A stretch of DNA of 4,580 nucleotides, taken from IMG/VR virus record IMGVR_UViG_2698536312_000015; one strand, given 5' to 3'. This DNA comes from a virus. Lineage: Duplodnaviria; Heunggongvirae; Uroviricota; Caudoviricetes. Below the pieces are notes generated by a model. That model was not told where the DNA came from, did not search any database, and worked only from the letters and a program-made list of their open reading frames with translations. Each line of letters starts with the position of its first letter. The stretch's first letter is position 1. Made by a program: the position numbers and the translations under genes. This document shows, piece after piece, positions 13-4,580 of the stretch.

Positions 13-1446
13 TTAAGCGCAGCTATTTAGTGAATTAAGTAAATTAGTCAGTGACCTTGTAAAGTCTGTTAAACCTTCCTGTGAACCATCGAACATTAAG
101 GCCAGATTATTATTCCATGAATTACTTAAGCGGCCTAACTGCGTCTGAGTAGAGTTAATAATCTTTTCCCATCCACCAGCTTTATCAATCATCCTTCCCA
201 TTTCAGCGGATACTTTAGGAAGAACATCTTTAGAAAGAACCTTACCGTCTTTCATGGCCTTGTCTAATTCTTCCGTAGTCATCCCAAGACTTCTGGCAAA
301 TAACTGAAAAGCACCTGCCATTCTGTCACCTAATTGACCGCGTAGCTCTTCAGCCTGAATCTTTCCTTTAGATGCCATCTGCTCGAAAGCTTTTAAAATC
401 CCGTTAATTTCATCGGTGCTTAGCCCCATTAATCTGGATGTACCAATCACATTAGAAAATAAGGATTCTTTCTGGTCTGCATTCATATCACCAGCACCAG
501 CGGAAAACTTAGCAAAACTGCTTAATGTTTCAATCTGGTCTACACCACTACTATCAGCAAGATTCTTAACAAATTCTGTAGCTCGTTTAGCACCTTCATC
601 ACCTAAAACGAATTGTGCCGCTCGTTGTGATGCTTCTTTTTTCAGACCAACCTCCATAATCCGCCTGTAAGCTTCTAAGGCTGTCTGAAAACTATAAATG
701 GCTGTACCTGCTTTGATTGCACTCGTAGCTAATACATCCAGACTATTTGAAGCATTTTCACTGTGATTATTTTTGCTGGTGGTCTTGTTAAACTTAGAAA
801 GTGTTTCACGAAGAGACTGATTTAACTTTGCTAACTCACGATTAAAAGTTTCGTTTCCAAGTGTCTTGGATTTACTGCTTAAGCTGTAATACTGGCTTTT
901 AAAATACTTCTCAAGCATAGGATTAAAGTCACGAAGCTTGCTCATATTCGCTGAGTAAGCTGCTGTGATTGCTCTGCTTCCGCTAATTCGTGGCTGTCTT
1001 GNNNNNNNNNNNNNNNNNNNNNGTTGTCTAAGTGGCTTTAAAGTATCCTCAATTTCAGTTTTAATCTTAAACGCTCTAGTGTTTTTAAGACGCTGCTCAA
1101 TCTTGGAAACAGTTTTATCGACATTTCTTTCCATTAGTTTGAGAGAATNNNNNNNNNNNNNNNNNNNNNNNNNNNNNNNNNNNNNNNNNNNNNNNNNNNN
1201 NNNNNNNNNNNNNNNNNNNNNNNNNNNNNNNNNNNNNNNNNNNNNNNNNNNNNNNNNNNNNNNNNNNNNNNNNNNNNNNNNNNNNNNNNNNNNNNNNNNN
1301 NNNNNNNNNNNNNNNNNNNNNNNNNNNNNNNNNNNNNNNNNNNNNNNNNNNNNNNNNNNNNNNNNNNNNNNNNNNNNNNNNNNNNNNNNNNNNNNNNNNN
1401 NNNNNNNNNNNNNNNNNNNNNNNNNNNNNNNNNNNNNNNCATACAA
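13..1446 (-). CDS. Tape-measure-domain protein (putative tail length tape measure protein); true start hidden in or near the N-masked block
   Basis: Long minus-strand ORF ending at TAA (13-15). Residues encoded around 190-423 (…GLSTDEINGILKAFEQMASKGKIQAEELRGQLGDRMAGAFQLFARSLGMTTEELDKAMKDGKVLSKDVLPKVSAEMGRM…) match, from memory, the conserved core of phage tape measure proteins (TP901-type / tape_meas_nterm). The frame is preserved across the 21-nt N run. The track start (TTG 1444-1446) overlaps the terminator T-tract and is not credible; the in-frame ATG at 1132-1134 has no Shine-Dalgarno, so the start is probably inside 1149-1439. Confidence 0.6.
   Translation of the reverse strand: MYXXXXXXXXXXXXXXXXXXXXXXXXXXXXXXXXXXXXXXXXXXXXXXXXXXXXXXXXXXXXXXXXXXXXXXXXXXXXXXXXXXXXXXXXXXXXXXXXXXSLKLMERNVDKTVSKIEQRLKNTRAFKIKTEIEDTLKPLRQXXXXXXXXRQPRISGSRAITAAYSANMSKLRDFNPMLEKYFKSQYYSLSSKSKTLGNETFNRELAKLNQSLRETLSKFNKTTSKNNHSENASNSLDVLATSAIKAGTAIYSFQTALEAYRRIMEVGLKKEASQRAAQFVLGDEGAKRATEFVKNLADSSGVDQIETLSSFAKFSAGAGDMNADQKESLFSNVIGTSRLMGLSTDEINGILKAFEQMASKGKIQAEELRGQLGDRMAGAFQLFARSLGMTTEELDKAMKDGKVLSKDVLPKVSAEMGRMIDKAGGWEKIINSTQTQLGRLSNSWNNNLALMFDGSQEGLTDFTRSLTNLLNSLNSCA
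1002..1022. other. N run (21 nt) inside the tape-measure-like ORF
   Basis: Directly seen. Length is a multiple of 3 and the reading frame is continuous across it; flanked by a short direct repeat (TGTCT at 995-999 and 1026-1030; protein ...RQ[mask]RQ...). Confidence 0.95.
1149..1439. other. N run (291 nt) hiding the 5' end of the tape-measure-like gene and its upstream region
   Basis: Directly seen. 291 = 97 codons. Lies between the terminator (1444-1488) and the first visible tape-measure-like codons (<=1148). Confidence 0.95.
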
Positions 1447-1488
1447 AAAAAGGGAGAGCTACCGATGTCACTCGATAATCTCTCCCCG
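1444..1488 (-). terminator. Rho-independent terminator (minus strand)
   Basis: On the minus strand: GGGGAGAG (1487-1480), 21-nt loop, CTCTCCCT (1458-1451), giving 7 Watson-Crick pairs plus one G-U, followed immediately by a T-tract (7 T including the wobble base, complement of 1445-1451). Sits 23 nt downstream of the 69-aa ORF stop. Confidence 0.6.
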
Positions 1489-1510
1489 TATTTACCCAAC
1501 CAATTCTTTT

Positions 1511-1720
1511 TTAATGTCGGACAAGATAATGTAATTCCGTTTCACCTATGATTTGAGCATCAGAAGGAATACGGTCAATACACCACTTTGGAATCTTGCG
1601 TGTTTTTGGTTTGTGTGAGGTGATAACTTGACGTTTGTTTTTAATTCTTAAGGCTGGCTTAGTTTGTAACTTTAAGTTTTCACAAACAGACCGAATAGTC
1701 TCTAAACGTTCTTCAAACAT
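1511..1720 (-). CDS. Hypothetical small basic protein (69 aa)
   Basis: ATG at 1718-1720 preceded by AGAGGTGA (1724-1731); TAA at 1511-1513. Lys/Arg-rich (…RIKNKRQVITSHKPKTRKIPKW…). No family recognised. Confidence 0.7.
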   Translation of the reverse strand: MFEERLETIRSVCENLKLQTKPALRIKNKRQVITSHKPKTRKIPKWCIDRIPSDAQIIGETELHYLVRH

Positions 1721-1742: not shown

Positions 1743-2453
1743 TCAAACAGCCTTGCTATACTTCTGAGAAATCTTCGTTAACTGCTCAATATCAGCCATC
1801 AAAGCAATCTTCTTCTGCGACTCATATTCACTAACAAGTTCTTTCATAGTATCAAGTTCTTTTTTAAGCTTTTGCTTTAACTTATCCAGTTTACCGGAAT
1901 AATGCTTAGTCAAATTAGCTTCAGCTAACTGAAGAATCTCTTCATCTGTTTTATCAGTCATCAGAATAAATTGACCAGAACCCCTTAATGCTTGTCTGAC
2001 ATCAATTAACCGGAACCCTTCAGGGATACTTTGAAGAACTTTAGGAACGTCTTCAATCGCTGTACCAAAACCATCATTAAAGTTTCCTTCATAATAGATA
2101 AACGGGTTTGACTTAATCTCGTAAGCAATATCATATTCTGAAGGTTTCGAGGTTTCTTCGAAGTTCTTAACAGCATCGTAAGCGACATCAAGTCTAAGAC
2201 GCTGTGATTTTAAAGCTGGGTAATATTCACGCTCAAGCTCAAATAGTGCTTCAGTTTTGCAGATATCAGGCATTTCTTGAGGCTCAGGAGACACAAAGGA
2301 AATTACCTTTGGTGACATCTTTAGCTCTTGCTCAAGCTCAATGCGCTTGTCATGCTCTTGACGCTGAATAGTATGTAGCGGATGTTCACCCTGTGGTGAC
2401 CAGTCTCCGAAGCTATCAACCTTTTTACCGTTAATATATAAATCGTTTGTCAT
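1743..2453 (-). CDS. Hypothetical acidic protein (236 aa) with a Lys/Glu-rich, probably helical C-terminal region
   Basis: ATG at 2451-2453, TGA at 1743-1745. Immediate upstream sequence is ATTATA then N; an identical ATTATAATG 35 nt upstream is preceded by GAGGAA, suggesting the hidden copy also carries an SD. C-terminus …KLDKLKQKLKKELDTMKELVSEYESQKK… is coiled-coil-like by composition. Confidence 0.7.
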   Translation of the reverse strand: MTNDLYINGKKVDSFGDWSPQGEHPLHTIQRQEHDKRIELEQELKMSPKVISFVSPEPQEMPDICKTEALFELEREYYPALKSQRLRLDVAYDAVKNFEETSKPSEYDIAYEIKSNPFIYYEGNFNDGFGTAIEDVPKVLQSIPEGFRLIDVRQALRGSGQFILMTDKTDEEILQLAEANLTKHYSGKLDKLKQKLKKELDTMKELVSEYESQKKIALMADIEQLTKISQKYSKAV

Positions 2454-2459
2454 TATAAT

Positions 2460-2485
2460 NNNNNNNNNNNNNNNNNNNNNNNNNN
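2460..2485. other. N run (26 nt) in the start region of the 236-aa gene
   Basis: Directly seen; flanked on both sides by the identical 9-mer CATTATAAT (2451-2459 and 2486-2494). Confidence 0.95.
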
Positions 2486-2494
2486 CATTATAAT

Positions 2495-2500
2495 TTCCTC
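2495..2500 (-). promoter_or_regulatory. Shine-Dalgarno (GAGGAA) 6 nt upstream of ATG 2486-2488
   Basis: Minus strand reads GAGGAA-ATTATA-ATG, an ideal initiation context. That ATG is out of frame with the 236-aa ORF and would give at most an 11-codon ORF ending at TAA 2453-2455. Confidence 0.5.
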
Positions 2501-2550
2501 TAAGTGTGGTTATTTCTTAATAGAGCACCTTCAACGCCAATACACTTAGA
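2499..2550 (-). promoter_or_regulatory. Possible RNA hairpin abutting the ribosome binding site
   Basis: Perfect 9-bp inverted repeat TCTAAGTGT / ACACTTAGA (plus 2499-2507 and 2542-2550), 34-nt loop. On the minus-strand transcript the 3' arm runs directly into the GAGGAA SD. No U-tract follows, so not a terminator. Confidence 0.35.
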
Positions 2551-2557
2551 AGATGAC

Positions 2558-3454
2558 TTAACGATTTATTAAAGNNNNNNNNNNNNNNNNNNNNNNNNNN
2601 NNNNNNNNNNNNNNNNNNNNNNNNNNNNNNNNNNNNNNNNNNNNNNNNNNNNNNNNNNNNNNNNNNNNNNNNNNNNNNNNNNNNNNNNNNNNNNNNNNNN
2701 NNNNNNNNNNNNNNNNNNNNNNNNNNNNNNNNNNNNNNNNNNNNNNNNNNNNNNNNNNNNNNNNNNNNNNNNNNNNNNNNNNNNNNNNNNNNNNNNNNNN
2801 NNNNNNNNNNNNNNNNNNNNNNNNNNNNNNNNNNNNNNNNNNNNNNNNNNNNNNNNNNNNNNNNNNNNNNNNNNNNNNNNNNNNNNNNNNNNNNNNNNNN
2901 NNNNNNNNNNNNNNNNNNNNNNNNNNNNNNNNNNNNNNNNNNNNNNNNNNNNNNNNNNNNNNNNNNNNNNNNNNNNNNNNNNNNNNNNNNNNNNNNNNNN
3001 NNNNNNNNNNNNNNNNNNNNNNNNNNNNNNNNNNNNNNNNNNNNNNNNNNNNNNNNNNNNNNNNNNNNNNNNNNNNNNNNNNNNNNNNNNNNNNNNNNNN
3101 NNNNNNNNNNNNNNNNNNNNNNNNNNNNNNNNNNNNNNNNNNNNNNNNNNNNNNNNNNNNNNNNNNNNNNNNNNNNNNNNNNNNNNNNNNNNCCTTGAGA
3201 TATTTTTCAGGGCTAACGCTGTATTTGTTCGTTTCTTCGATAATAAGACGCTTCATGTTTGAGTCGGTAACAGGAAACATAAAACGCGGTTCACCAGTTT
3301 CAATTTCCTGAATAAAGTCTTCAATTTCTTCTGAGTTTTCAGCCATTAGCTTTAGTAATTTATCAAGGTCAATTGATACACCGGAATCAGCGAAAGCCTG
3401 CACCATCATAGCAGTGTCGCTATCAATGAAAATCTGTAATTCATATTCGTTCAT
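2558..3454 (-). CDS. Hypothetical protein with strongly acidic N-terminus; only the first 87 codons are visible, the rest is N-masked
   Basis: ATG at 3452-3454 with AAGGAG 9 nt upstream; the track's TTG 3485-3487 start is rejected. Visible N-terminus MNEYELQIFIDSDTAMMVQAFADSGVSIDLDKLLKLMAENSEEIEDFIQEIETGEPRF… has 19 D/E vs 8 K/R in 87 residues. The ORF then enters the N block at 3192; the end at 2558 is only the first stop after the mask and is unverified. Confidence 0.5.
   Translation of the reverse strand: MNEYELQIFIDSDTAMMVQAFADSGVSIDLDKLLKLMAENSEEIEDFIQEIETGEPRFMFPVTDSNMKRLIIEETNKYSVSPEKYLKXXXXXXXXXXXXXXXXXXXXXXXXXXXXXXXXXXXXXXXXXXXXXXXXXXXXXXXXXXXXXXXXXXXXXXXXXXXXXXXXXXXXXXXXXXXXXXXXXXXXXXXXXXXXXXXXXXXXXXXXXXXXXXXXXXXXXXXXXXXXXXXXXXXXXXXXXXXXXXXXXXXXXXXXXXXXXXXXXXXXXXXXXXXXXXXXXXXXXXXXXXXXXXXLINR
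2575..3192. other. N run (618 nt) hiding most of the acidic-protein gene, possibly more than one gene
   Basis: Directly seen. 618 = 206 codons; content unknowable from this window. Confidence 0.95.
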
Positions 3455-3482: not shown

Positions 3483-3588
3483 CTCAATCGCTCTGTAACG
3501 AGCTAAACAGTCTTTTTCAGGGGTAGCCTGTACAGTGGTATTACCCACCCTAAAATAAGATAGTTTTTTGCGTTAGAATGCGATTGAG
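3483..3588. repeat. 9-bp inverted repeat pair (CTCAATCGC at 3483-3491, GCGATTGAG at 3580-3588) separated by 88 nt, with palindrome CTGTACAG (3528-3535) near the centre
   Basis: Read directly from the largest visible intergenic region (3455-3632). Rough chance expectation for a 9-mer inverted match in a region this size is a few percent. Confidence 0.4.
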
Positions 3589-4386: not shown

Positions 4387-4580
4387 TTAAAAATCCTCTG
4401 TAACTAAATAGGGGTCAAACTCGAAATCTGGTTGCTCGTTTTCCATTGGCTCAATATTCCCAACGGCAATATGATGTTCAACAATGCCAATTAATTTCGC
4501 GCACATCACAGCAAGCAAAGCGCAATATTTATCGCTTGGTAATTCGTAACTGGATTTGCCCCTATATTTCCAGACATCTG
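4387..4580 (-). CDS. Partial CDS (C-terminal 63 codons; start lies beyond the window edge)
   Basis: Open minus-strand frame from the window edge (4578) to TAA at 4387-4389, ending …NIEPMENEQPDFEFDPYLVTEDF. Its stop directly abuts the ATG of the RHH gene (TAAATG) and its last codons contain that gene's SD. Absent from the ORF track because it has no start in the window. Confidence 0.5.
   Translation of the reverse strand, partial: DVWKYRGKSSYELPSDKYCALLAVMCAKLIGIVEHHIAVGNIEPMENEQPDFEFDPYLVTEDF

Follow-up and report, generated by a model that had tools for sequence, protein, structure and literature searches.

A conserved, bulged hairpin with a U-tract ahead of the tape-measure gene of an Escherichia coli chromosomal island: a probable Rho-independent terminator crossed by read-through

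We analysed a stretch of 4,580 nucleotides (nt) of DNA, IMG/VR virus record IMGVR_UViG_2698536312_000015, parts of which were masked; this whole stretch is hereafter called the window. Between the gene for a basic protein of 69 amino acids (aa) and the gene for a phage tail tape-measure protein it carries, at positions 1487-1445 of the minus strand, a long hairpin abutting a run of seven T residues. We propose, with a probability of about 0.75, that this element is a functional Rho-independent terminator which acts as an insulator or attenuator, and that the tape-measure protein and the tube-initiator protein encoded behind it are made by transcriptional read-through. An earlier note, made from the letters of the window, had placed an intrinsic terminator at 1444-1488, and this call was supported by the anatomy of the element, by a test against chance and by its conservation among homologues.

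All open reading frames (ORFs) of the window, whatever their length, are on the minus strand, and the hairpin and T-tract are on this same coding strand, with the hairpin beginning 23 nt past the stop codon (1513-1511) of the 69-aa ORF. Read as minus-strand RNA from 1493 to 1440, the sequence is AAAUAC-GGGGAGAG-A-UUAUCGA-GUGACA-UCGGUAG-CUCUCCC-UUUUUUU-GUAUG. A G+C-rich basal stem of 7-8 base pairs (bp) joins 1487/1486-1480 to 1458-1452, and an inner stem of 7 bp joins 1478-1472 to 1465-1459 and closes a 6-nt loop, giving a total stem of about 15 bp interrupted by a single bulged A. The 8-bp GC-rich stem and the 7-T tract of the earlier note were both present where it had placed them; what it had read as a 21-nt loop proved to be the second 7-bp stem with its hexaloop. 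The parts of the element and its immediate surroundings are as follows:

1494-1503, minus strand: non-coding motif TTGGTTGGGT between the stop codon and the hairpin, one copy per locus and always at this place
1480-1487, minus strand: 5' arm of the basal stem, GGGAGAG (1486-1480), together with G1487, which can form a G·U pair with the first U of the tract
1472-1479, minus strand: bulged A (1479) and 5' arm of the inner stem, UUAUCGA (1478-1472), an arm swapped for other complementary sequences in homologues
1466-1471, minus strand: hexaloop GUGACA, varying freely in homologues (GUGAUA, UAUUAU, AUAAAA and others)
1459-1465, minus strand: 3' arm of the inner stem, UCGGUAG
1452-1458, minus strand: 3' arm of the basal stem, CUCUCCC, whose variants UUCUCCC, CCUCCCC and CUUUCCC keep the pairing
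1445-1451, minus strand: U7 tract directly 3' of the stem, T5-T8 in 64 of 64 distinct homologous intergenic regions
1440-1444, minus strand: GUAUG, where the unmasked sequence ends; nearly all homologues likewise have GTAT after the T-tract

RNA folding and terminator scoring, among the checks that the earlier note had named, spoke for its call. Folding of a 71-nt context gave a minimum free energy of -22.1 kcal/mol (z = -3.4), and none of 200 shuffled sequences folded equally well; the hairpin alone gave -19.7 kcal/mol, and the opposite strand of the hairpin region only -13.4 kcal/mol. In a custom scan for single hairpins of at most 55 nt closed next to at least 6 T in 8, the site ranked first in the window at -19.7 kcal/mol, the runner-up standing at -12.0 kcal/mol. 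When the 3,624 unmasked bases were dinucleotide-shuffled 120 times, no shuffle reached -19.7 kcal/mol, whereas 28 of the 120 reached -15 kcal/mol, and weaker sites alone would therefore not be convincing. The site was also the strongest coding-strand terminator in two complete copies of the chromosomal island to which, as described below, the window belongs. A search of the whole island against Rfam (E <= 1) gave no match at the terminator and only weak chance matches in the leader farther upstream. The second-best hairpin with a T-run, at 3510-3570 of the window, falls in the stretch that separates the 66-aa and 107-aa-type genes, on the plus strand rather than that of the genes; its -12 kcal/mol is inside the range of shuffled sequence.

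For the comparison with homologues we used the 69-aa protein family as an unbiased anchor, in 80 metagenome loci together with IMG/VR and E. coli loci. Ninety-nine locus sites had both the small gene and the tape-measure start, and these reduced to 64 distinct intergenic sequences of 81-218 nt. All 64 carried the hairpin, with energies from -14.9 to -22.3 kcal/mol (median -22.2), and the run that follows it was T5 in 9, T6 in 51, T7 in 3 and T8 in 1. The distance from stop codon to hairpin varied from 6 to 76 nt. There were 21 distinct hairpins among the 64 sequences, and in many homologues the stem is of 15 contiguous bp. The basal stem varied conservatively, through the four forms of its 3' arm listed above, and the inner stem had been swapped about eight times for unrelated self-complementary sequences (among them UAUCGA/UCGGUA, UUAACC/GGUUGG, UUAUCUGGAU/AUCUAGGUAA and UCUAGA/UCUGGA), while the loop varied freely. 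MAFFT alignments put the hairpins out of structural register, and a covariance model, built from four sequences, was used in their place; its alignment comprised 32 distinct rows. The model found exactly one sense-strand match per locus, that of the window scoring 51.7 bits (E = 2e-10). Canonical pairs filled 98.2% of the cells of the alignment, and 6 of the 15 pairs had changed on both sides. Double-sided cells numbered 39, compared with 11.3 +/- 2.5 in column shuffles, and none of 500 shuffles reached 39, a control that overstates the significance because the alignment had been fitted to the structure and the sequences are related. G·U cells numbered 75 against 6 A·C cells, with G·U found almost only on the coding strand, which shows that the pairing has been selected in the minus-strand RNA and not as a DNA palindrome. 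The comparison shows conservation of the predicted structure rather than of the sequence, with selection acting on the RNA strand.

The motif upstream of the hairpin behaved otherwise: (A)ATTGGTTGGGT(AAA) at 1494-1503 was kept in most island variants, one copy to an island, and was missing from the most divergent lineages, in which the hairpin and T-tract were retained. A role for it as a repeated operator was rejected, given the single copy per island and its loss from divergent lineages.

The distance from the end of the T-run to the tape-measure ATG ranged from 18 to 142 nt across homologues. In eight distinct variants it was only 18-21 nt and consisted of GTAT, the Shine-Dalgarno (SD) sequence GAGGTG and a spacer of 7-9 nt, the SD beginning 4 nt past the T-tract. 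Such a distance leaves no room for a promoter, and in these islands the tape-measure and tube-initiator genes must therefore be expressed by read-through. Partial or regulated read-through had been among the possibilities raised by the earlier note, and these eight variants favour it. The long spacers consist of variable cassettes that are not conserved from one variant to another; gain and loss of such cassettes accounts for the 18-142 nt range. The long spacers showed no significant RNA folding compared with shuffled sequences (z = -0.4 to -1.1), and in no predicted fold did the hairpin sequester the SD. Cassettes come and go around the terminator (for example at 16264-16403 of locus L001 and 7137-7345 of locus L005; the window counterpart, in 1149-1439, is masked). 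One, of about 28 nt, GAGATAGKYTTCTATCSGAAKYCTAT, contains a GATAG-N3-4-CTATC palindrome and is found upstream of the hairpin, downstream of it, or both; another, of about 70-100 nt, is bounded by GCTACGT...ACGTAGC. In the window itself the tape-measure start is masked and probably lies about 130 nt downstream of the terminator, near 1311, as judged from alignment with the 688-aa protein of E. coli strain H2. The element thus stands between the 69-aa ORF and the tape-measure gene, as had been noted, and its placement directly upstream of that gene gives way to a probable separation of about 130 nt.

A first alternative is that the element is a hard operon boundary and that the tape-measure and tube-initiator genes have their own promoter in the spacer, either of the sigma70 type or specific to a helper phage. 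The earlier note had likewise looked to the masked block for a promoter. The spacer of the window, at an inferred length of about 130 nt, is masked, the long spacers of other copies hold variable cassettes, and a scan for sigma70 sites is blind to phage-specific late promoters. The GATAG cassette of some variants also carries a weak sigma70-like sequence (9/12), ATGAGA-16-TATAGT (TATAAT in some), which in those with the cassette upstream falls just before the hairpin. That sequence, however, precedes the hairpin, does not occur in the window and scores no better than shuffled sequence does. No sigma70-like site was found in the long spacers of loci L017 and L005, the latter of which has the exact hairpin, T7 and GTATG of the window; the homologues thus gave the idea of a promoter in the masked block no support. 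The spacer cassettes are unconserved among variants, and in the eight short variants the 18-21 nt are filled by GTAT, SD and spacer. We therefore consider a separate spacer promoter unlikely.

Still less probable, in our judgment, is that the element serves mainly in RNA stability or processing, by protecting the 3' end of the message for the 236-aa protein (whose gene precedes the 69-aa gene) and the 69-aa protein or by a 5'-untranslated-region effect on tape-measure translation, with termination incidental. The stem is indeed long (about 15 bp) and very stable, the tape-measure SD is very near to it in the short variants, and the 3' arm CUCUCCC resembles an anti-SD. Against this, the stem is followed in all 64 variants by an unbroken U5-8, which is needed for termination and not for stabilization or translational control, and the SD is left unsequestered in every predicted fold. 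Terminator hairpins, moreover, also stabilize 3' ends, and stabilization would be largely a by-product of termination rather than a rival to it.

We regard as very improbable a role at the DNA level without any in RNA, whether as a protein-binding palindrome or as a recombination hot spot at a module junction in the manner of the T4-type promoter early stem-loop (PeSL). The family is highly mosaic, some E. coli megablast matches span the hairpin region only, and differing types of 69-aa gene and of tape-measure N-terminus are combined on its two sides. The 75 G·U against 6 A·C cells, however, reflect strand-specific pairing in RNA, the free replacement of inner stem and loop is incompatible with a sequence-specific binding site, and the T-tract is one-sided, with one copy of the element per island; a role as a recombination junction could in any case coexist with terminator function. 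Finally, a chance inverted repeat beside an A/T run in AT-rich intergenic DNA is effectively refuted: under a permissive model 28 of 120 shuffled windows do give a site at or below -15 kcal/mol, but 0 of 120 do so at -19.7 kcal/mol, and the site has the right strand, the right place after a stop codon and compensatory conservation in 64 of 64 variants.

Several points weigh against the terminator and read-through reading which we prefer to these alternatives. Termination itself, its efficiency and any regulation of read-through are what we infer from sequence, and the significance of the covariance test is, as stated, overstated. In the 9 of 64 variants with T5 the run is followed by C, which should weaken termination. 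With its spacer masked, the window could have a promoter in its own copy. The built-in consensus terminator scan of the window returned 0 sites, a failure explained by the bulge, since its rule demands a contiguous stem and a loop of 3-8 nt. Among the island proteins no antiterminator of the Q or N families or any other was found with Pfam, PHROGs, NCBIfam or PADLOC; no nut-, qut- or put-like site was identified, and TTGGTTGGGT is unlike boxA or boxB.

If the element does terminate, transcripts would start at the upstream promoter or promoters of the island, cross the 236-aa and 69-aa genes and fold into the interrupted hairpin of about 15 bp against the U6-7 tract, where most would be released. 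The tape-measure and tube-initiator genes, lacking a promoter of their own, would be expressed only by those polymerases that read through, and the terminator would thus hold expression of the tail cassette below that of the upstream genes, or shut it off. It might simply be leaky and set stoichiometry, as its equivalent in FelixO1-like phages appears to do; less certainly, it might be overridden by a processive antiterminator during phage infection. The gene behind it appears worth gating, as 65 of 74 distinct tape-measure ORFs were intact, at 679-726 aa.

The genes and the masked block that flank the element in the window are:

13-1148, minus strand: visible part of the tape-measure gene (TMP_3 domain), start codon masked, ORF ending at about residue 472
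1149-1439, minus strand: masked block, in which homology predicts a spacer of about 130 nt, the SD GAGGTG and some 55 codons from the start of the tape-measure gene
1511-1720, minus strand: gene for the 69-aa basic protein, the last gene before the terminator
1743-2453, minus strand: gene for the 236-aa protein, separated by 22 nt from the 69-aa gene downstream; PGAP calls it a 'transposase', with no family match

Neither of the two upstream proteins matched a tail family. The 69-aa family is limited to Escherichia, Shigella, Citrobacter and Kluyvera; its AlphaFold2 model had a predicted local distance difference test (pLDDT) score of 79, and a Foldseek search of the PDB with it gave nothing better than E = 0.18. 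The best match of the 236-aa protein was from S. sonnei (95%), and its AlphaFold2 model (pLDDT 51) was too poor for a fold search. We rejected the two genes as tape-measure chaperones, as they have no similarity to the chaperones of Ounavirinae phages, and found no phage match for the 236-aa protein or for the leader ahead of it. For the 69-, 236-, 107-, 66-, 92- and 184-aa proteins of the island, neither Pfam, PHROGs, NCBIfam and PADLOC nor sequence searches of the PDB gave a match. At the start of the 236-aa gene, in window 2450-2495, CATTATAAT flanks both sides of a masked stretch of 26 nt (…gtcattataat[N26]cattataatttcctc…), a sign of possible small-scale duplication at the start codon and its ribosome-binding site.

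The leader is a non-coding region of 330-490 nt ahead of the 236-aa gene (in the window at 2486-3192, mostly masked; in L001 at 17343-17705 on the minus strand; in L017 at 22779-22807), and it holds a hairpin of about 29 bp, CAGTTTTTAAAAAGCATACTTGGCA...TGTCAGGTGTGCTTTTTAAAAACTG. In 17 of 19 distinct leaders a near-consensus sigma70 promoter, TTGACA-17-TG-CATAAT (11/12), was present 331-487 nt upstream of the 236-aa gene. All 19 versions, including the two without a promoter match, contained two to four hairpin and T-run sites of -10 to -20 kcal/mol, and that of strain H2 was extremely structured, with a folding energy of -106 kcal/mol (z = -8.1). The region may be a regulatory leader or a small RNA, and the terminator described here would be the last in a chain of predicted terminators between a strong promoter and the tail cassette.

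At 88-95% identity, the window matched the chromosomes of several hundred complete E. coli genomes. The DNA concerned is an island that about 8% of complete E. coli genomes carry (433 of 5,426); it also occurs in many gut metagenomes and is widespread among Escherichia, Shigella and Citrobacter. The homologous insertion of strain H2, about 11.2 kb long, splits yecE; in strain A0 34/86 the same gene order, of similar size (about 11 kb by annotation), stands between tonB and yciI; and a third copy was found, as was a metagenome contig of 11.5 kb with the whole island and yecE flanks (island coordinates are L001 11712-22883 and L017 16715 to about 27900; see also L158). Along the direction of transcription the island has genes for 184-aa, 92-aa, HNH (90 aa), 66-aa and 107-aa proteins, then a non-coding gap of about 460 nt, and after it the 236-aa and 69-aa genes, the hairpin, the tape-measure gene (TMP_3), a gene for a 257-aa protein resembling distal tail (Dit) proteins and a convergent gene for a large serine recombinase. 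No capsid, terminase, sheath, tube or lysis gene was present in it, and Pfam, PHROGs, NCBIfam and PADLOC found no hallmark gene of P4, of phage-inducible chromosomal islands (PICI), of capsid-forming PICI (cf-PICI) or of PICI-like elements (PLE). It is thus a small integrative element that encodes a large serine recombinase and occupies at least two places in the chromosome (yecE; tonB-yciI), and we observed integrated copies only. The idea that metagenome contigs of 11-12 kb were circles was rejected for the one examined, which had yecE flanks and no terminal overlap. Among 50,697 phage records there was no close relative save for a 35-nt end of IS2, a plasmid search gave IS2 matches only, and the GTDB species genomes yielded one locus only, cut at the tape-measure gene; in the literature searched we found no description of the island. 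The copy in the window, possibly from Shigella to judge by the S. sonnei match of its 236-aa protein, is a decayed remnant: positions 1-27 diverge from all homologues, cutting the tape-measure ORF at about residue 472, and 4546-4580 are the end of an IS2 element. Its own terminator signal may therefore be vestigial.

The tape-measure protein of strain H2, of 688 aa, is 34% identical to that of the Ounavirinae phage Zyzzx over about 510 of its 688 residues, from the N-terminus, and the 257-aa protein shares 47% identity, along its whole length, with the product of the gene right after the Zyzzx tape-measure gene. In phage Bas63 the gene right after that for the tape-measure protein gp17 encodes gp18, the tube initiator (PMC12609058). 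By this synteny, without direct comparison to gp18, we take the 257-aa protein to be the counterpart of the Bas63 tube initiator. The intact tape-measure proteins of the island are of 679-726 aa, compared with 763 aa in the FelixO1-like lineage. The 21 masked nt at 1002-1022 of the window fall within an RQP repeat of this protein, which reads LRQPRQPRISG in most homologues, and at this point the window is 7 codons longer than H2, suggesting a short in-frame tandem-repeat expansion. The tube gene and frameshifted chaperone genes that precede the tape-measure gene in a conventional tail operon are absent from the island. Because the 236-aa and 69-aa proteins are not tail proteins and the only tail genes of the island of about 11 kb are those for the tape measure and tube initiator, the locus is not a conventional tail operon, a conclusion at which the earlier note had hinted. 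To us the island looks like a satellite-like or defence element aimed at FelixO1-like phages, a candidate role. A fuller version, which we hold to be possible but doubtful, is that this element of the Enterobacteriaceae parasitizes or sabotages the virulent myophages of the Ounavirinae by means of its own shorter tape measure and tube initiator, its terminators silencing the module until a helper- or island-encoded factor makes polymerase terminator-resistant.

The element resembles the Rho-independent terminators of E. coli and its phages in the G+C-rich base of the stem abutting U6-7, in orientation, in an energy of about -20 kcal/mol and in its compensatory substitutions. It differs from the canonical form in its long, bipartite stem (7 + 7 bp around a 1-nt bulge; many homologues have 15 bp unbroken), which causes simple pattern scanners to miss it, and in the ribosome-binding site of the next gene, which follows within 4-130 nt with no promoter between. 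A simpler parallel is found in the Ounavirinae themselves, the phage lineage from which the cassette came. In Zyzzx (a Hafnia phage) and ST-3 (a Salmonella phage) a terminator, of -22.3 and -14.9 kcal/mol respectively and with T6, stands between the tube gene and the chaperone and tape-measure block (L156 4505-4546; L159 about 1711-1740); a terminator before the tape-measure block is normal in these related phages, a point on which the earlier note is to be corrected. In both systems a strong hairpin is followed by a T-run and GT(T)T, in the phages 25-29 nt before the next ATG, and the tape-measure and tube-initiator genes of the island are homologous, in the same order, to genes behind the phage terminator. 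The phage terminator follows the abundantly expressed sheath and tube genes and precedes two chaperone genes, with the tape-measure gene 5 nt after the second, and presumably lowers the synthesis of low-copy tail proteins; in the island, where tube and chaperone genes are missing, the terminator comes after two unrelated genes, with the tape-measure gene next behind it. The hairpins of phage and island are not homologous in sequence.

In phage lambda, terminators are controlled by antitermination, through Q at PR'-tR' and through N at tL and tR. The island is like the lambda Q and N operons in having a near-consensus, constitutive-looking promoter, a short structured leader with terminators and a further terminator before structural genes, and unlike them in that no homologue of Q, N or another antiterminator and no qut-, nut- or put-like site was found in it; that it depends on antitermination we put forward as a hypothesis only. 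In phage T7, T-phi is a partial terminator for T7 RNA polymerase located after the capsid gene 10 and ahead of the tail genes 11-12. There, as proposed here, a leaky internal terminator lowers the expression of downstream tail genes without a new promoter; T-phi, however, works in a complete phage with its own polymerase, whereas the island is small and presumably uses that of the host. In size and integration, and in carrying homologues of virulent-myophage structural genes but no capsid, terminase or lysis genes, the island is like the Vibrio cholerae PLE, which has a large serine recombinase, and like P4, of about 11 kb; in contrast to P4, PICI, cf-PICI and PLE none of their hallmark genes was detected in it, and it is known from integrated copies only. 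We know of no described satellite with its own tape-measure and tube-initiator genes, and our literature searches found none. A precedent for interference with tail assembly by mobile elements is provided by the Tai systems (PMC11364771), whose proteins are unrelated to those of the island. Set beside these systems, the element is an ordinary intrinsic terminator of a well-known kind, a clean example of one hidden from simple scanners by a bulged bipartite stem and of one standing 4 nt from the ribosome-binding site of the next gene, and the surrounding island is the more interesting object. The terminator offers a handle on that island, whose only tail genes are those that, in a virulent phage lineage, determine tail length and nucleate the tube; if infection switched read-through on, the terminator would be a simple gate controlling a satellite or defence island of a new, tail-directed kind.

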